Of a stretch of 64,000 nucleotides of DNA, positions 13,910 through 36,519 are shown one piece after another. The notes beneath the pieces are model-generated. The model did not search any database. It was not told the DNA's origin and worked only from the letters and a program-made list of their open reading frames with translations. The position numbers were made by a program, and so were the translations under genes. Every line of letters starts with the position of its first letter. Within the stretch, counting starts at the first letter, position 1. This stretch comes from an uncultured delta proteobacterium (lineage in GTDB: Bacteria > Desulfobacterota > Desulfobacteria > Desulfobacterales > JAHEIW01): the NCBI GenBank assembly GCA_963706575.1, contig CAVPNL010000012.1:192001-256000 (forward strand), read 5' to 3'.

Positions 13910-14006
13910 GGGATTCCTAATTAAACCTCTGATTACTCTCCAACATATCGGCGAAATTGACCGGCCTCCAGAAGTTGTGATATTTTCGCATATCTGTAAA
14001 ATTGAG
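13910..14006 (+). repeat. Island spacer repeat A, copy 1
   Basis: gggatt..taa..aaac..tgatt..ctccaacatatcggc...aagttgtgata...atatctg.aa aligns with 16251-16280 joined to 18396-18458. Confidence 0.7.
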
Positions 14007-14277: not shown

Positions 14278-16171
14278 ATGGCAGATGAAGGTTTTAAGCG
14301 CAAGCTAACCGCAATTCTCAGCGCCGATGCAGTTGGGTACAGCCGTCTCATGGCAGAAGATGAGGCTGCCACTGTAAAAACTATCGCTATCTACCGTGAA
14401 ATCATGTCATCTCTGATCAAACAGCACAGGGGTCGAGTCGTTGATTCACCAGGGGATAATGTGCTGGCCGAGTTTTCCAGTGTGGTCGACGCCAGTGCAG
14501 TGTGCTGTGGCTGTGCAAAAGGAAATTCAGGCCCGAAACGCAGAGTTGGCCGAGAACCGTAGAATGGAGTTTCGCATTGGAATCAACCTTGGGGATGTCA
14601 TTGATGAAGAAGGTCGCCTCTACGGCGATGGAGTCAACATCTCGGCCCGGCTGGAGGCACTGGCAGACCCTGGGGGTATATGCGTTTCAAAGACGGTTTT
14701 TGATCAAATCGAGACCAAACTACCGCTGGGCTATGAATATTTAGGAGAACAGTCAGTTAAAAATATACCCAAGCCGGTTGGTGCTTATCGGGTCTTGATG
14801 AAGCCTGATGATGCTGGCAAAGTGATTGGTGAAAAAAAATTTTTAGGTCGGTATTCACGCAGGACAGCGATGGCCACCATTATAATTCTGATCGTAGTAG
14901 CAGTAGGTTTAGTTAGCTGGAATATTTATCTTCAGCAATCTAAACGAGTAGAGCCAGCATCTTTAGATAGAATGGCCTATCCATTGCCAGATAAACCATC
15001 GATCGCAGTATTGCCATTTGTTAACATGAGCGACGACCCTGAGCAGGCGTATTTCAGTGACGGGATCACGGAGGATATCATCACGACCCTGTCCAAAGTC
15101 CCCAAGCTGTTCATCATCGCACGGAACTCGACATTTACATACAAGAATAGATCGGTCAAGGTTCAGCAGGTGGCAGAGGAACTGGGTGTGCGGTACGTGC
15201 TTGAAGGCAGCGTAAGGAAGGCGGGAGAAAAGATCCGTATTACGGCCCAGCTGATCGACGCCGTTAATGGCCATCACCTCTGGGCGGAACGATTTGACAG
15301 GGATCTGAAAGACATCTTCGCCCTTCAGGACGAGATCGCCATGAAGGTCCTAACCGCGCTGGAAGTTAAGTTGGTCGGGGGACATACTTCCCTTTTAATC
15401 TCAAGAGGGACCGATAACTTGGAGGCGTACCTGACTGTCTTACAGGGTCGCGAGTTTCATGAGCGCTCGAACAGGGAAAACAATTTCATGGCTCGACAAA
15501 AATTCGAGGAAGCTCTGGCCTTGGATCCCAACTATGCCGCCGCCTTCAACCTGCTTGCCCGAACCCACTTCATGGACGTCTGGCTCGGATCCAGTAAATC
15601 CCCCAAGGCGTCGCTCATAACGGCCATTGATCTAACACAGAAAGCTATTGTCTTGGACGATTCACTTGCGGATTCGCACGCACTCCTCGGCTACCTCTAT
15701 ACCCTGACGCGGCAGCACGACAAGGCGATTGCGCAGGGGGAGCGGGCCGTGGAGCTCGATCCCAACTCCAGTTTAGCTTATCTTTGGCTGGGAACCAGCC
15801 TCAATTATATTGGAAGAACTGAGGAGGCCGTGGCCATGATTGAAAAGGCGATCCGCCATAACCCAATGCCCCCCAGTTCGTGGTACGTTTTCTTAGGCTC
15901 GGCCCTGTCAAACGCAGGGCGGTATGACGAGGCGGTAACCGCGTCCCGGAAGGCCGTAGAACTGTCACCAAACAACATTTTCGCACAACTCGCACTGGTG
16001 TTGTCTTGCAATCTGGGCAGCCGCGATGAGGAGGCCCGTTCCGCAGCGGCCGAGGTCCTCCGGATACAGCCGAATTTCTCAGTAGATAATTTCGCTAAGA
16101 GAATGCCCTATAAAGACCCGGCGGACATGCAACGGATAGTGAAAGCGTGGCGCAAGGCGGGGCTGAAGTGA
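14278..16171 (+). CDS. Class III adenylate/guanylate cyclase + TM + TolB-like + TPR protein, 1-nt frameshift near 14491-14494
   Basis: RKLTAILSADAVGYSRLM, GDNVLAEF, FRIGINLGD, YGDGVNISARLE, PSIAVLPFVNMS, TPRs. Removing one base at gacgccagtg restores VVDAVQCAVAVQ. Confidence 0.88.
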
Positions 16172-16368
16172 GGGAAAGCAAGGCACTACATGTTATGGCT
16201 TGGCTTATTTTCTTTAGATTGCATATATCATTAAAAATCACAGCCGTTTTGGGATTGTTAAAAACTGTGATTTCTCCAACCTGTACGACATAAAATGATA
16301 ATTGACTAAACAGTCGATCGAGGTCATTATCTACCTGTTTTTTCTGCAAAAAGCGAAAGGAGGTAGTG

Positions 16369-17448
16369 ATGAACCTCGAGCATGTGTCTGCAGGAAAAAG
16401 CACATACAGCCCCACAGCGATCCAGCCCAAAGCGATTCAACTTTCAATTTTTCCCAAAATATCTCTTCGCCCCGCCTATCATGTATCTAATGAACAGATC
16501 GAGCGCACCCTGCGGCGAATATCCGCTGAAGGGTTGTGTGGCAGCGATATGGTGCGCGATTACCTTTGCCGGCAGCTACGGCACAACTGCCGGCCCAGCA
16601 CCATTCGCAGCAGCGGAACCACTATCGTGCTATTTTTAGAGTTTTTTAAGCAAAGCGGCGGTCAGCAGTTGGCGGCAGCAGGTCCAGAGCATATCAGCGC
16701 TTTTGTTGAACATGAGCAAGATCGTGGTATGGCGCCAAACTCGGTGGATGGACGGCTAAAGGGATTGTATGCGTTTTTAAATTTTTTAGTTGAGCACGAG
16801 GTTATCAGCGCGGATGTGATCAAGCGTAAGCTTCGCATCAGGGTGCCCCAGGCCCTGCCGCGGGCCATTGATCCGGAGGATATTAAGCAGCTGTTGGCGG
16901 CAATAGAAAAGCCTCGGGATCGGGCGCTGATACTAACGCTTCTTCGCACCGGCATGCGTATCGGCGAGCTTTTAAGCACCAGGGTTAAGGATATCAATCT
17001 GCGCGAGCAACTGGTTCAGATCTTTGAAGCACATAAAAATCGGGTGGGCCGGGTGGTCTATCTTAGCGCTGATGCGGTGGGCACCTTGGAAAAATGGTTA
17101 AAGACAAGAAAATATCAGAGCAAATTTATCTTTTATGGCTATGATGTTGGACCGCTTTGCTACCAAGCGGCCCGTGCGATGTTCAAACGCTATATAGACA
17201 AAACCGGTCTGGCCCACAAGGGCTACACGCTTCACTGCCTGCGTCACACATACGCCAGTGAGCTGTTAAATGCCGGTATGCCGCTGCAATGTCTGCAGGA
17301 GCTTTTGGGTCACAAAAGCATTGAGATGACGCGCCGATATGCGCGGCTAACCGACAACACGCGTCGCAAGGCTTATTACCAGGCGATGACCATCATTGAA
17401 GCAGGAGAGATCAATGGGCATTACCGACTCGATTATCAACTACCGTAG
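16369..17448 (+). CDS. Tyrosine recombinase 1 (XerD-like, N-terminal SAM-like domain)
   Basis: TGMRIGEL, K, HCLRH, LGH, TRRY catalytic set intact. GGAGG RBS. Confidence 0.93.
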   Translation: MNLEHVSAGKSTYSPTAIQPKAIQLSIFPKISLRPAYHVSNEQIERTLRRISAEGLCGSDMVRDYLCRQLRHNCRPSTIRSSGTTIVLFLEFFKQSGGQQLAAAGPEHISAFVEHEQDRGMAPNSVDGRLKGLYAFLNFLVEHEVISADVIKRKLRIRVPQALPRAIDPEDIKQLLAAIEKPRDRALILTLLRTGMRIGELLSTRVKDINLREQLVQIFEAHKNRVGRVVYLSADAVGTLEKWLKTRKYQSKFIFYGYDVGPLCYQAARAMFKRYIDKTGLAHKGYTLHCLRHTYASELLNAGMPLQCLQELLGHKSIEMTRRYARLTDNTRRKAYYQAMTIIEAGEINGHYRLDYQLP

Positions 17449-18334
17449 ATCGTTAAAAAGGCGCAACTTCTCTAAATACACCATCAGAAATTACATGAGC
17501 ACACTGAAGCAGTTTGTCATTTGGCTGGATGTGCCCATCGATAAGGTAACCCACCAAAAGCTGGTGGGCTTTATCGATGATCTGTTGGCCAAGCGCCTGA
17601 AACCCAAGACCATCAACTGCTACCTGGACAGCATCCGCGGCTTCTATGACTACCTGATCTGTGAGGAGCAACTTAAGATGCAAAATCCGGTGAAACTCGG
17701 AGATACACTGCGCATGTCCAAGCCACTGCCGCGCTTTTTGCGAGATGAGCAGGTGCGGACGCTTTTTGCACAGATCGATGATCCAAGGGATTTGGCCATC
17801 TTCAAGCTGATGCTGCGCTGCGGCCTTAGGGTGCAAGAGGTGGCCAAGTTGACTCTTGCCTCTGTGGATTTAAAACGCGCCCAGGTGTTTGTCTACCATG
17901 GCAAGGGCGCCAAAGAACGGATGGTTTATTTAAGCAAAGATGCCTATCAGGCGCTTTTGGCCTATCTGAAGGTCAGGCCTTTCTCCCGGGCCAAAAGGCT
18001 TTTTTTGGTCAACAAGGGCCGCTTTAGAGGCCAACCGCTCAACGTTCGCGGCATCCAGCACCGTATCAAATACTACTCGAAAAAGGCGGGCTTTAAGGTC
18101 AGCTGCCACCAGCTGCGCCACACCATGGCCACCCAGATGCTCAATGCCGATGCGGATTTAGTGACCATCCAGGACCTTTTGGGCCACGCCTACATCACAA
18201 CAACCGAGCGGTATTGCCGTGTGTCGAACCAGAAAGTGCGAAGGGATTACTACCGGGCAATGGATAAAGTAATCGAGCGCCACAGCCCGGTCGGAAACAA
18301 AAGACTTGACAAAGAAGAAATTTTGATTAATTAA
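17414..18334 (+). CDS. Tyrosine recombinase 2 (XerC/D-like)
   Basis: CGLRVQE, GKGAKER, HQLRH, LGH, TERY. AGGAGA RBS before ATG 17414. Overlaps recombinase 1. Confidence 0.93.
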   Translation: MGITDSIINYRRSLKRRNFSKYTIRNYMSTLKQFVIWLDVPIDKVTHQKLVGFIDDLLAKRLKPKTINCYLDSIRGFYDYLICEEQLKMQNPVKLGDTLRMSKPLPRFLRDEQVRTLFAQIDDPRDLAIFKLMLRCGLRVQEVAKLTLASVDLKRAQVFVYHGKGAKERMVYLSKDAYQALLAYLKVRPFSRAKRLFLVNKGRFRGQPLNVRGIQHRIKYYSKKAGFKVSCHQLRHTMATQMLNADADLVTIQDLLGHAYITTTERYCRVSNQKVRRDYYRAMDKVIERHSPVGNKRLDKEEILIN

Positions 18335-18459
18335 AATGGAAGCTAACTAATTAATATTAATAGAAATAACAGGGTTTATGTCGTACAGCTCCAACATATC
18401 GGCACTTTTGAACCCCTCGCAAAAGTTGTGATACTCGTTTTATATCTGCAATCATAAGG

Positions 18460-18547
18460 GCCAAGACAGTTCCGACCATTCTAATCTAATCGAACTATTT
18501 TTCCTCTACCAACCTCCGTCCTTGAAAGCTACACTTAGCTCTGATAT
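18460..18547 (+). repeat. Island spacer repeat B, copy 1
   Basis: gccaag(a/t)cagttccgaccatt.t.atctaatc.aact...aacctc.gtcc(c)ttgaaagc...tgatat, repeated at 19492-19580. Confidence 0.85.
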
Positions 18548-18591: not shown

Positions 18592-19479
18592 ATGCCACTT
18601 TACAAAATCCTTCCAGACGGACAAACACTTGAAATTGTTAAGAGAAAAGAATTCTCATATGAAAAAGACCTTCATATTCTTATAGACAGGAATCTCCTCA
18701 GTTTATTGGGAATAAGGTTAATTGCGAGTGAGTACCCAATTCCAAATGGAAGAATCGACACTCTTGGACTTGATGAAGATGATATTCCTGTAATAATAGA
18801 ATATAAAAAAAAGAAGGATTTAAGCGCAATCGTTCAAGGCTTATTTTACCTTGATTGGATTATGCAGAACAAAAAGCCCTTTGGGTCGATAGTTAAAGAT
18901 AAGCTAGGCAAAAGCGTGGATGTCAACTGGTCAAAGCAGCCTCGCCTTCTCATCATTGCACAAGATTTCGATGTCAAAGAATTAACGGCTATTAATCAAA
19001 TGGGTCCAAGAATTGAGTTGGTCAAATATTCATTCTACGAAGGATTATTCAATATTGACGGTGTGAATATCGTTGAGGCCAAATCACCACCCAAAAAAGA
19101 TGAGGGCGAAAAGCCTTCTGAAGATTATACGGTTGAGCAATTGGTTAAGAAAGCAACCCCAGAAATTCAATCCCTATATATGGAATTGCGAGAGAAAATA
19201 ACCGCTATTTCTGAATCTGTGTGGGAGAAAGTTCATTCATATTATTGCGATTTCCGCACTACCTCAACTTTTACCACTGTAAATGTGCAAAAGACTCAAC
19301 TTAAGATCTTTTTAAAGATGGGTGAACGCGAGGTTGATGATCCTAAAGGTCTTACTAAACCAGTCCCTTCAAGTTGGGGCTATGGTCACTTAAATACTCA
19401 GTTCCTTATTTCAAAAACTGATGAAATTGATGACGCAATGCATTTGATAATGCAGGCTTATGATTATGTTTCAGGATAA
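18592..19479 (+). CDS. NucS/EndoMS-like PD-(D/E)XK nuclease fused to a DUF5655-like domain
   Basis: EKDL...GRIDTLGLD...VIIEYK...QGLFYLDW. C-terminal DDPKG...WGYGH...LIMQAY. Confidence 0.8.
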   Translation: MPLYKILPDGQTLEIVKRKEFSYEKDLHILIDRNLLSLLGIRLIASEYPIPNGRIDTLGLDEDDIPVIIEYKKKKDLSAIVQGLFYLDWIMQNKKPFGSIVKDKLGKSVDVNWSKQPRLLIIAQDFDVKELTAINQMGPRIELVKYSFYEGLFNIDGVNIVEAKSPPKKDEGEKPSEDYTVEQLVKKATPEIQSLYMELREKITAISESVWEKVHSYYCDFRTTSTFTTVNVQKTQLKIFLKMGEREVDDPKGLTKPVPSSWGYGHLNTQFLISKTDEIDDAMHLIMQAYDYVSG

Positions 19480-19491
19480 TTTTTAATTCGC

Positions 19492-19580
19492 GCCAAGTCA
19501 GTTCCGACCATTTTGATCTAATCAAACTTTATTACCTCATCGAACCTCAGTCCCTTGAAAGCCGCACGCACCTTTGATAT
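19492..19580 (+). repeat. Island spacer repeat B, copy 2
   Basis: Direct, degenerate copy of 18460-18547, starting 13 bp after the nuclease stop codon. Confidence 0.85.
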
Positions 19581-21169: not shown

Positions 21170-21580
21170 TTAACCGACTTCATCGGGTTTTTTTATCGCA
21201 AAATTTTTTTCGTTTTTGCTTTTTTCATCATCATTAATTAAAGTTATTAATTTATAATTCCCCTCTTCCTTTGCTGTCACTGGGGAAATAATCATATGAA
21301 ATTGAAATCTAGTATATCCCTTGATGTGTTCTGGGGGGCCACCCTTTACTTTTTTCCCAATCCGATTCCCAGAAGGATCTAAGAGTTCAGCTGAAAAAAT
21401 ATCGCCTCCTTTAATGTTTTCATAATTTATTACAAAACAGAGCTTGGGGAAGGTAAAGGGAAATTTTGGAACAAAGATATCTTTGGCATAAACGCCCATC
21501 ATCGAAATTTTATTTCCCACCTCTTCCCTTATATCATCACAGATTAGTGTGAAATTACATTTCGGTTTTTTCGCTGGCAT
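21170..21580 (-). CDS. DUF6941-like beta-rich protein, third gene of the TA operon
   Basis: LICDDIREEVGNKISMMGVY...FPKLCF...EEGNYKL pattern. Start at MPAKK overlaps the antitoxin 3' end. Confidence 0.7.
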   Translation of the reverse strand: MPAKKPKCNFTLICDDIREEVGNKISMMGVYAKDIFVPKFPFTFPKLCFVINYENIKGGDIFSAELLDPSGNRIGKKVKGGPPEHIKGYTRFQFHMIISPVTAKEEGNYKLITLINDDEKSKNEKNFAIKKPDEVG

Positions 21581-22244
21581 ACCATCCCTCTGAAGAAGCA
21601 TCTGAATTGGAGGAAAACACTTGTTCTGTATCCATCTGCGAAACCCCTGATGAAAATAAACTATCCTCCGCGTATGTCGATTGTGGGTCTCTCACACCCA
21701 AAAAAACCGTCTTAGGTCTCTGTGTGCAAGGATTAGAGATTTGCTGCAACCTGACTTTGTAATCGTCTTGATAAAACTCAGCAATAATTTGATAGAACAT
21801 CTTTGTTTCTTGAAGACGTATCTCAGATAGATTTTTCAGTATTTTTTGCGAATCTTCAATCTTTATTCCCTTATAAATCATATAGGTAGCTCTAATTAAT
21901 CGGTCATTTGTCTCGCTGTGATTTTGAAGGTCATTTTCCCATTTTGAATAAGTTGTGCTCCCTACCCCCAAAGCAGATGCAAATTTTTTTGATGGAAAAT
22001 GCATATTTTTTCTTAAAAATTTAATTTCGCTACCATTTAGCAAAGAATGTTTTTCCAAAAGAACCGACGCAATTAAATCGCTCAGATATCCCACTCGAAA
22101 AATTGAAGGGTACATTATGCCGCAATTGCACTCATAAACGGGAATATTATGGATATTTACGTTGTATAGACCAGATTCTCTATACCAATAATCCCCTATT
22201 TTCGGCTGAATTAATTTGCCACAACCGGGACATTTATTTTTCAT
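21555..22244 (-). CDS. MqsA/YgiT-type zinc-finger + HTH antitoxin with a long C-terminal extension
   Basis: CPGC...YRESGLYNV...ECNCG zinc ribbon. LNGSEIKFLRK...FASALGV...YSKWEN HTH. About 100 further residues, the last ~60 Ser/Asp-rich. Confidence 0.85.
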   Translation of the reverse strand: MKNKCPGCGKLIQPKIGDYWYRESGLYNVNIHNIPVYECNCGIMYPSIFRVGYLSDLIASVLLEKHSLLNGSEIKFLRKNMHFPSKKFASALGVGSTTYSKWENDLQNHSETNDRLIRATYMIYKGIKIEDSQKILKNLSEIRLQETKMFYQIIAEFYQDDYKVRLQQISNPCTQRPKTVFLGVRDPQSTYAEDSLFSSGVSQMDTEQVFSSNSDASSEGWYASEKTEM

Positions 22245-22253
22245 TATACAGTC

Positions 22254-22562
22254 CTATTTGTCCATGATTGTTATACAAGCCACTTCTCGATGACCAACTA
22301 TTACTGTTACTACAGTTGCCTTATCACCATCAATTGCATAACCGGTGGCCTTATATTTCCAATCATCATGCTTTTTATCATATTCTGGGGCTTCGGTAAC
22401 CATGCAATTCGAAAGCAGGTATTCTAGATCCTGCATATCGAATCCCCTTTCTTTCATTCTTTCCTGGCAATGAGATCTTGGTGTAATCCATCCCAATTTA
22501 GCAATCTCCCTGATTTTTTGCTGGGCCTTTTGTGGTGAAAGTCTATATTTATTATCGGTCAT
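22254..22562 (-). CDS. DUF4258-family (RelE-superfamily-like) putative toxin
   Basis: HCQERMKERGFDMQDLEYLL...WKYKATGYAIDG...VVTV...ITIM. Confidence 0.85.
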   Translation of the reverse strand: MTDNKYRLSPQKAQQKIREIAKLGWITPRSHCQERMKERGFDMQDLEYLLSNCMVTEAPEYDKKHDDWKYKATGYAIDGDKATVVTVIVGHREVACITIMDK

Positions 22563-27677: not shown

Positions 27678-27950
27678 CTATAAGCTATCTCAAAATTAGC
27701 AGTTCATCTTGGAAGACCGAGAAAAACAAGTTCCAAAGGTGCTCTAAAATTAGAAGTGCCTAAAATGACTAAAATGAATTAAAATGCCTAAAATTATGGT
27801 TTCGCTGCGCTCCATCTTTGATTTAATATGATAGAATTCCTCAACTTTAGGCATTTTAGATCATTTCAAATTTTAGTGCATTTGTTGTTATAAGCACTTT
27901 TTTTAGGTTTAAAACTTTAGCATCCGATGTTAAATGCATTTTTGAAATAG
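27678..27950. mobile_element. MITE-like dispersed repeat, copy 2 (centre inverted relative to copy 1)
   Basis: Outer parts align directly with 642-940. The centre 27793-27845 is the reverse complement of 755-836. Confidence 0.8.
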
Positions 27951-35916: not shown

Positions 35917-36320
35917 CTATACGTAACAAATGCCAATTTTTCTCTTAATATTAATTAGTTATATTCTGTTTAATAATTCGTATTTTGCTGGCTATCAAGC
36001 AAAATTAAAGATGATTACCTCCGGTTCGCTGCATCACCAGCCTCATTGCTTTAAAATAATCACGCTGTACTTTGAGATTGCACACCTTGCAATACCTCTG
36101 GGTTGTCTTGATTCTCGCATGGCCTAACAGATCCTGGATGGTGACCAGATCCGCATCGGCATTGAGCAGTTGAGTCGCCATCGTATGACGCAGCTGGTGG
36201 CATGATATCGGCAAACCGGTTTTGTTGGCATAGTGCTCCATTCGTTTTTGGATGCCTCGCACCGATATCGATTTGCCTCTGTGAGTGCCTTTTTCAACCA
36301 GGAACAGCTTCTTGACTCTG
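35917..36320 (-). pseudogene. Remnant right end of a second two-recombinase element (C-terminus of recombinase 2 plus terminal sequence)
   Basis: SCHQLRHTMATQLLNADADLVTIQDLLGH nearly matches 17414..18334. ttaatattaattagtta (35945-35961) is the exact reverse complement of 18344-18360. ctatacgtaacaaa resembles the TIR. Confidence 0.85.
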
Positions 36321-36519
36321 CAAAACAGAATCTCACATGGCCTCCTTTTCGCGTATTTTCCGACAGGCAAGGAATTCAATATCATCAAGAGAGAGTGTTT
36401 TTTCTTTTCTTTTGCAAGCGAATGCGGGAAAATCTCTAATCGGTAATTTCTTTGTCAATCACGGATGCATTGAAATTCGAAGATTCTCTTAGACTAAAAT
36501 TGGAAAAATACAATCGAAA

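Follow-up and report, generated by a model that had tools for sequence, protein, structure and literature searches.

A stretch of 64,000 nucleotides from an uncultured delta proteobacterium (assembly GCA_963706575.1, contig CAVPNL010000012.1, positions 192,001 to 256,000; hereafter the window) carries a 2,108-bp element (16281-18388) with perfect 14-bp inverted ends, the heptamer CTCCAAC outside each end, and no gene between the ends besides intA and intB, two tyrosine recombinase genes that overlap by 35 bp (Table 1). We consider it fairly probable that this is a transposon the size of an insertion sequence (IS) whose two tyrosine recombinases move it, without a helper protein or a long recombinase, by way of a circle carrying its own 7-bp crossover core, much as in Tn554 and the SE elements. 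Across the sequences compared, the family has fixed ends, two conserved recombinases only, multiple copies at unrelated sites, lineage-specific heptamers and, in one contig, a junction of the two ends. The window's element looks like a real, intact and active member of this family that moved recently.

The element and its family

An earlier note on this DNA, made from the letters alone, had seen two overlapping recombinase genes with an intact R-K-HxxR-H-Y set and nothing else inside the ends, and Pfam, the catalytic residues and the open reading frames (ORFs) agree with it. Both proteins match Phage_integrase above the Pfam cut-off and have complete catalytic sets (R197, K223, H289, R292, H315 and Y324 in IntA; R139, K164, H232, R235, H258 and Y267 in IntB). 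The two are 29% identical to each other, and the six residues are invariant in 69 of 69 IntA and 67 of 67 IntB homologues. The best library matches of both are XerC/XerD, below the NCBIfam cut-offs (154-203 bits vs 330-335), and both also fall below the cut-off for IntI. The predicted model of IntA (mean predicted local distance difference test score, 83.7) has a disordered segment (residues 1-40), one extra helix, one SAM-like core-binding domain and the catalytic domain; N-terminal strands are absent from it. The predicted IntA-IntB complex scored 0.33 against a mark of 0.34. Across the family IntA reaches 404 aa and IntB measures 291-323 aa, while the overlap of the two genes is mostly 14-140 bp and is 4 bp in 3 of 63 pairs.

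A second copy in the same genome (C1:17-2124) differs by 8 substitutions in 2,122 bp and has the same heptamer on both sides within other flanks, which is direct evidence that the whole unit moved recently. Several other genomes are also multi-copy, one of them with five near-identical copies (L039, L041, L043, L045 and L068). Decayed relatives occur as well: besides the remnant in the window (Table 1), solo right ends of sister lineages, some with intB fragments, lie elsewhere in this genome (G000) at C4:297328, C18:69324, C18:104768 and C18 ~89570. As the short end pattern scored no higher than a control across the family, only matches with inner repeats were used.

A search of GTDB genomes with IntB returned 128 related stretches. 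The best 80 of the 128 all carry titles of metagenome-assembled genomes, mostly of deltaproteobacteria/Desulfobacterota, with a few Nitrospirota, FCB and Gammaproteobacteria bins; IntA was matched in 17 of 401 genomes of the phylum, this one included. Gene order is intA then intB at each of the 80 loci where both are covered, and another, distant recombinase lies within 4 kb at 4 of the 80, always outside the element ends. Inside the ends there is neither a third recombinase nor a TnpC-like gene, nor any conserved ORF of at least 50 aa besides intA and intB, and element length stays within 2.05-2.55 kb. The earlier note's proposal of a minimal two-recombinase mobile element is borne out by the second copy and by these homologues; a third recombinase or a TnpC gene, either of which would have pointed to a deleted RIT or Tn554 element, did not turn up inside the ends, nor did ends out of register with the inverted repeats.

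Neither homologues nor the junction pattern were found in IMG/VR, and plasmids searched gave matches only at XerC/XerD level or about 30% identity. Database names of the family's genes are XerC/XerD or generic integrase, labels that make the family invisible to annotation. No account of it was found in the full-text literature, a search that left subscription journals, ISfinder, TnCentral and supplements outside; this family of two-recombinase, IS-sized elements is apparently undescribed.

Among the closest relatives of IntA and IntB, a phmmer search of 1.8 billion representatives found about 20 proteins, 450-700 aa long, that combine two recombinase domains in a single chain. In the full-length ones the N-terminal half is IntB-like, and catalytic motifs are present in both halves of those inspected. 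One is named from Anaerolineae, and most of those looked up lie on 2-3-kb contigs, as for multi-copy elements; their loci were not found in viral contigs or plasmids. They likely form a single-gene sister family. Fused proteins of 600-700 aa with two complete domains include P0020, P0029, P0030, P0033, P0044, P0046 and P0053, among others. A FastTree phylogeny of 71 sequences unites IntA and IntB with the fused halves in one group (support 0.93-0.96), separate from the sampled Rit proteins, the Tn554-like long recombinases and host Xer; the Rit trios (L212, L213 and L217) were labelled from gene order and 4-bp overlaps.

The flanking heptamers and the joined ends

Both ends could be placed at 57 of 82 loci, and 12 elements from further searching were added. 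After removal of loci without an end, of duplicates and of four elements with doubtful right-end calls, all mismatched (L051, L057, L119 and L142), 67 elements remained. Identical heptamers flank 53 of the 67 (53 of 71 if the four are kept). The end structure described in the window, inverted ends between two identical heptamers, is not due to chance, being shared by the second copy (with CTCCAAC) and by 53 homologous elements. Sixteen words occur among the 53, chiefly CTTCCTG (13), GTAGGTG (11), CTCCAAC (5) and CAAATAC (5), with fewer of the others. The heptamer is common to 36 of 36 element pairs at or above 85% identity and to 0 of 1,103 pairs below 65%; in lineages other than that of the window, upstream flanks of insertions with the same core differ at about 13 of 20 bases and are mostly unrelated. 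By these comparisons the heptamer is constant within an element lineage and different between lineages. The earlier note had offered a constant CTCCAAC as the mark of site specificity and variable 7-mers as the mark of duplication; the tabulated flanks are lineage-constant, neither universally constant nor random. A near-complete switch of core, from CTTCCTG to CAAATAC, separates elements whose IntB proteins are 85-89% identical.

The two heptamers are unequal in 14 of the 67 elements. Eight of these have a perfectly flanked relative at or above 70% identity, and in all eight the left heptamer is the deviant one, while the right is the lineage word in seven and one base off in the other. Of the 28 mismatched positions, 20 fall on the three core bases most distant from the left end, and up to 5 of 7 core bases are mismatched (L074). 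A lineage word on the right with another word on the left cannot be produced by target duplication. The view that the 7-mer is a crossover overlap, and not a DDE-type duplication, is upheld by these left-side deviations. Only the left heptamer can be relied on to come from the target, and the right one appears to be brought in by the element.

A pattern search of JGI metagenomes gave one exact match to a right end, seven bases and a left end, in a 2,246-bp contig (L117) that reads right end, TTCCTGT, left end, intA, intB, right end, TTCCTGT, flank. This junction is what would be expected of a circle or a tandem dimer. Contigs from sediment runs break off at 16280 and 18400, which hints weakly at branching and no more, and in run X5 a 96%-like copy runs on into another repeat-type sequence. 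An RNA guide for the core is unlikely, because an element's own core occurs inside it in 9 of 67 elements against 13.4 expected and the non-coding ends are short.

The target repeat

Compared with a model of a repeat family made from 14 further copies, the flanks of the element in the window, rejoined over one heptamer, score as a full member (E 1e-14). An intact, unoccupied copy lies upstream, and the two copies bracket an adenylate-cyclase/TPR gene module. A profile of the 13938 region has 50 matches in the genome, 38 of them at E < 0.001, with the consensus GAT-N2-CTCCAAC-N2-ATC followed about 30 bp on by a second dyad with a 7-bp spacer; blast matches to the repeat occur in 16 of 21 other genomes of the genus. 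CTCCAAC occurs 396 times in the genome, 24 times inside the repeat, and both element copies sit there; the 9 available downstream bases of the C1 copy fit the repeat consensus and are too short to score (E 1.2). Heptamers with both GAT and ATC arms number four in the genome, all in the repeat. The earlier claim that CTCCAAC belongs to the target therefore stands for the intact copy at 13938 and for the rejoined site, and is narrowed in that only the left heptamer is reliably target-derived.

Other mobile DNA uses the same place. A group II intron with a reverse-transcriptase ORF lies inside a CTCCAAC core (C4 ~301240-303090; L082 13233-15036; Rfam), and its rejoined flanks score as the repeat (E 3e-15). 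An IS110-like element (C8 ~356800-357490) and another IS (C1 ~180720-182560), both identified by eye from sequence and ORFs, have an end at the repeat core, and a sister lineage occupies another conserved word, some 130 bp further downstream, in one subtype of the repeat (L092, C18). The repeat is a hotspot for several mobile elements, and it behaves as a module boundary would.

Whether it is also another system's recombination site, as the earlier note proposed, is weighed at slightly better than even, because no recombinase has been tied to it. All 20 of 20 neighbouring repeat pairs less than 10 kb apart are co-oriented, many copies begin a few to tens of bases past the stop codon of an accessory gene, homology between genomes often begins at the repeat core, and both dyads have 7-bp spacers. 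These features count against a somewhat less probable alternative, that the repeat is a regulatory or promoter module occupied because it is multicopy and non-essential. That alternative draws on the position of the repeat upstream of the next gene, on its TGTGA..TCACA-type dyads, which we take to resemble regulator sites, and on the failure to identify a cognate recombinase. It also gains from there being only one clean repeat-to-repeat shared module, a repeat-gene-repeat unit 86% alike in genome G005, with homology from the core to just before the next core (L144). As to the earlier proposal, the repeat family is real and a hotspot for mobile elements, and the targeting applies at most to this lineage and genus.

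The site is not an attC. An attC hairpin pairs an inverse core with a downstream core, whereas 33 copies of the repeat have a mean folding z of -0.58 and the best downstream partner of their first 12 bases has 4-6 mismatches. No IntI over cut-off was found in the 92%-complete genome (best 85 bits vs 265). The four matches to a relaxed dif-like pattern were unconvincing, and Rfam had no match to the repeat in one 20-kb stretch holding several copies. A third recombinase family (C18:107744-108544), considered as the enzyme of the repeat, is found in 7 of 21 genomes of the genus, with one locus having a clear repeat match nearby. The recombinase at this locus (C18:107744-108580, L083) has 267 aa or more and a start out of frame across an A-run that recurs in several homologues of the genus, possibly as a programmed frameshift; it lies one gene upstream of a CTCCAAC site with a repeat-like upstream arm.

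Arrays of the co-oriented repeat with a cassette-like look, without IntI, run between unrelated accessory genes throughout the genus; in this genome they are at C1 2-11 kb and 176-184 kb, C4 266-309 kb and 350-361 kb, and C8 354-360 kb. A c-di-GMP-I-GGC riboswitch lies inside one array (L082 1042-1116; C4 ~289050; Rfam). The adenylate-cyclase/TPR gene in the window (14278-16171) is split by an apparent frameshift near 14490 and has many paralogues in the genus, often with the target repeat upstream. The repeat suggests that uncultured Desulfobacterota of sediments may have a cassette system.

Proposed mode of transposition

Under the reading we favour, recombination between the ends would give a circle with a 14+7+14 palindromic core site, which would integrate at a matching chromosomal 7-mer, preferably one with weak GAT.. 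/ ..ATC arms, and the element's own DNA core would largely set the choice of target. Exchange would be strand-biased, with the target 7-mer going to the left and the carried one to the right. If the bottom strands were exchanged first, at the core edge adjoining the left end, and homology were checked mainly there, the observed polarity and the mismatch gradient would follow. One enzyme may bind the element arms and the other the target arms in a mixed tetramer; the difference between the two kinds of arm would explain why both enzymes are catalytically active. In this genus the CTCCAAC lineage would land in a co-oriented repeat bounding accessory modules, a harmless multicopy site, and new lineages would arise on the rare occasions when a mis-targeted core is captured.

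Several observations weigh against this scheme. L008 and L120 look right-deviant, and two of the eight informative left-deviant cases (L054 and L056) share one genome. L117 is a single contig, which a tandem dimer or an assembly artefact would also fit, and neither a circle nor an empty-site joint was found in four sediment runs (X1, X2, X3 and X5). Solo right-end remnants in this genome bear four different heptamers, which means either that the right core can vary or that the remnants have decayed. Two insertions of the CTCCAAC lineage (L001 and L003) lie outside the repeat, and the pooled GAT../..ATC symmetry of the target arms is weak (3.17 vs 2.86 matches of 8, p ~0.03). In addition, an IQ-TREE phylogeny made without support values placed the fused C-terminal halves and one outside protein differently, and the deep placement of the IntA/IntB/fused group is uncertain.

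The strongest rival, which we regard as unlikely though not negligible, is a conventional element that is cut out and pasted in, with both strands exchanged, an empty site left behind, and the target set by protein contacts plus strict core homology; the left-side bias would then come from mismatch repair or selection. The palindromic 14+7+14 junction of L117 is a textbook core site for such an element, cores match perfectly in 53 of 67 cases, some deviations are on the right (L008, L120 and the right-end remnants), and some lineages have one-sided flank motifs of their own, for example downstream of CTTGCCA. However, the eight of eight informative mismatches on the left, with as many as five of seven bases tolerated in L074, are hard to reconcile with it, several near-identical copies per genome fit a copying mode better, and no excisionase-like gene is present.

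Less likely again, at roughly one chance in ten by our estimate, is a real element that needs a helper in trans (host XerC/XerD, or a TnpC- or Srap-like protein) and is a reduced RIT, Tn554 or SE. Three or four proteins are listed for Tn554, SEs, GInts and RITs in the overview consulted (PMC10214605), and Tn554-like pairs without TnpC are mentioned in PMC3414803. Yet the family keeps to 2.05-2.55 kb with no conserved third ORF and has spread recently to multiple copies in many families, neither of its recombinases is a long TnpB-type protein, and IntA and IntB group with each other's relatives and the fused forms, apart from the sampled RitA/B/C, Tn554-like and host Xer proteins. Very improbable is a true duplication of the target site, in which proteins would read the heptamer directly and cut it in a staggered way. 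It would account for the 53 identical pairs of flanks, but against it stand the seven clear cases with the lineage word on the right and another on the left and the single 7-mer between the joined ends of L117; moreover, tyrosine recombinases are not known to duplicate their targets.

Relation to known systems

To judge by sequence features, the element would work like an SE or Tn554, but it fails the defining gene content of SEs, GInts, Tn554 and RITs. Like SEs, it has two catalytic tyrosine recombinases, short inverted ends (13-19 bp in SEs), a junction of the ends with a short spacer (on a circle in SEs), and central bases of the target at the left (intA-proximal) end with the carried bases on the right. 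SEs differ in having four conserved genes and a long IntB, in carrying cargo, in their 6-bp spacer and in being hosted by Gammaproteobacteria; here there are two recombinases of ordinary size, a 7-bp core, about 2.1 kb in all, hosts mostly in the Desulfobacterota and a putative strand bias. The SE/GInt gene set with Tfp/GinC and Srap/GinD is absent from the family, while the end junction with a short spacer, typical of SEs and GInts, is found in one contig, with a 7-bp spacer, as a circle or a tandem.

The polarity of target bases on the left and carried bases on the right has been published for SEs and Tn554 (in passages of PMC10214605 and PMC9345347). With Tn554 the element also shares two adjacent tyrosine recombinases, a site preference and a relay of footprints in place of target duplication; the absence of duplication, with the carried bases on the right, holds in 8 of 8 informative cases, L008 and L120 being possible exceptions. 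The Tn554 family has one long recombinase and usually TnpC, whereas in the present family both recombinases are about 290-404 aa and there is no TnpC. Even the actinobacterial Tn554-like pairs without TnpC have one recombinase of 611-828 aa, according to an excerpt of PMC3414803. TnpA is described as having N-terminal strands and a helix insertion (PMC8138268, in part); the IntA model is without TnpA-type N-terminal strands.

RIT elements are similarly small, cargo-free and multi-copy, with overlapping tyrosine-recombinase genes between terminal inverted repeats. They have three genes with 4-8-bp overlaps and 34-bp repeats, as excerpts of PMC3414803, PMC8138268 and PMC10214605 describe them, against two genes and 14-bp repeats here, and identity to the sampled Rit proteins is 24-29%. 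RitA has two core-binding domains in the section of PMC8138268 that treats it, and the IntA model has one. ritABC elements are named among mobilome-enriched sequences in PMC5737581, the accessible portion of which does not describe two-gene units.

The pair also resembles XerC/XerD in being two simple recombinases, but it is mobile and exists alongside separate XerC/XerD-like genes in the genome. Of the traits of DDE insertion sequences it shows neither the DDE transposase nor a duplication derived from the target. Recombination sites of the attC type are the targets of IS1111-attC elements and of group IIC-attC introns. Elements of the IS1202/ISAba32 group target xrs recombination sites, as stated in part of 10.1101/2022.12.17.520857. 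The present element is like all three in using a repeated, intergenic, module-bounding site as a safe landing place, and differs in that those use DDE/DEDD transposases or a reverse transcriptase, whereas here the enzymes are tyrosine recombinases and the site is neither attC nor canonically dif-like.

A 2023 overview distinguishes five groups of prokaryotic tyrosine-recombinase transposons and, in the portion consulted, reports that transposition of RIT and GInt elements has not been reproduced in the laboratory and that the route of Tn554 is unresolved (PMC10214605). We suggest, as a tentative and rather doubtful extension, that the present family may be a sixth group and the smallest, with a two-enzyme recombinase, fused in some lineages, that is retargeted by the 7-bp core alone, and that in this genus it may parasitise, and perhaps shuffle the cassettes of, an undescribed cassette system that is not attC-based and whose sites have the same core. 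With its naturally varying cores, a two-gene, cargo-free system of 2.1 kb would offer the simplest setting for studying the need for several recombinases and the handling of mismatched cores. If the carried 7-mer does set the target, the element would be a compact DNA-programmed integrase, with the fused relatives as single-chain versions.

Anatomy of the element and neighbouring features

The 29 aligned ends of the family have a common layout, in which the 14-bp terminal inverted repeat is joined by an inner inverted one; a dyad resembling a promoter precedes intA, and a TTGAC lies close to the right end. The left inner repeat is a candidate accessory binding site. The promoter-like match upstream of intA is possibly an autoregulated promoter of that gene; a scan of the element gave 1 sigma-70-like match against 2.8 expected in shuffles, which is not significant alone. 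TTGACA inside the right end may be the -35 box of an outward or circle-junction promoter.

Table 1. Positions of the element, its target repeat and a related remnant in the window.
Feature	Position	Strand	Remarks
Intact, unoccupied target repeat copy	13923..14006	+	Core at 13938-13944
Upstream arm of interrupted target repeat	16259..16273	+	Rejoined site scores over model positions 10-80
Left 7-bp core CTCCAAC	16274..16280	+	Crossover region, probably target-derived; polarity from homologues
Left terminal inverted repeat, 14 bp	16281..16294	+	Positions 2-7 kept in 80-100% of 67 elements
Sigma-70-like promoter match TTGACT-17-CATTAT	16302..16330	+	Inside imperfect dyad kept in most aligned left ends
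Left inner (subterminal) repeat	16335..16345	+	10/11 match, inverted, to right inner repeat; 29-end alignment
intA	16369..17448	+	359-aa tyrosine recombinase
intB	17414..18334	+	306-aa Xer-sized tyrosine recombinase
TTGACA	18306..18311	+	About 80 bp inside right end; kept in most aligned right ends
Right inner (subterminal) repeat	18362..18372	+	From sequence and alignment of ends
Right terminal inverted repeat, 14 bp	18375..18388	+	Exact reverse complement of left; no further extension
Right 7-bp core CTCCAAC	18389..18395	+	Probably element-carried
Downstream body of interrupted target repeat	18396..18459	+	Second dyad TGTGATA-N-ATATC
Sister-lineage remnant	35917..36385	-	3' part of intB and right end, heptamer CGTGATG

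Elsewhere in the window, a second direct repeat of about 120 bp (about 80% identical; 18460-18547 and 19492-19580) brackets a NucS-like/DUF5655 gene (18592-19479), and further copies of it occur in this genome and its relatives. A DUF4258 gene is followed by a zinc-finger/HTH gene on the minus strand (21555-22562), a pair that we presume to resemble a toxin-antitoxin system. A dispersed AT-rich repeat of about 300 bp with internal inverted arms, 83-96% identical, is present at 642-934 and 27678-27942.

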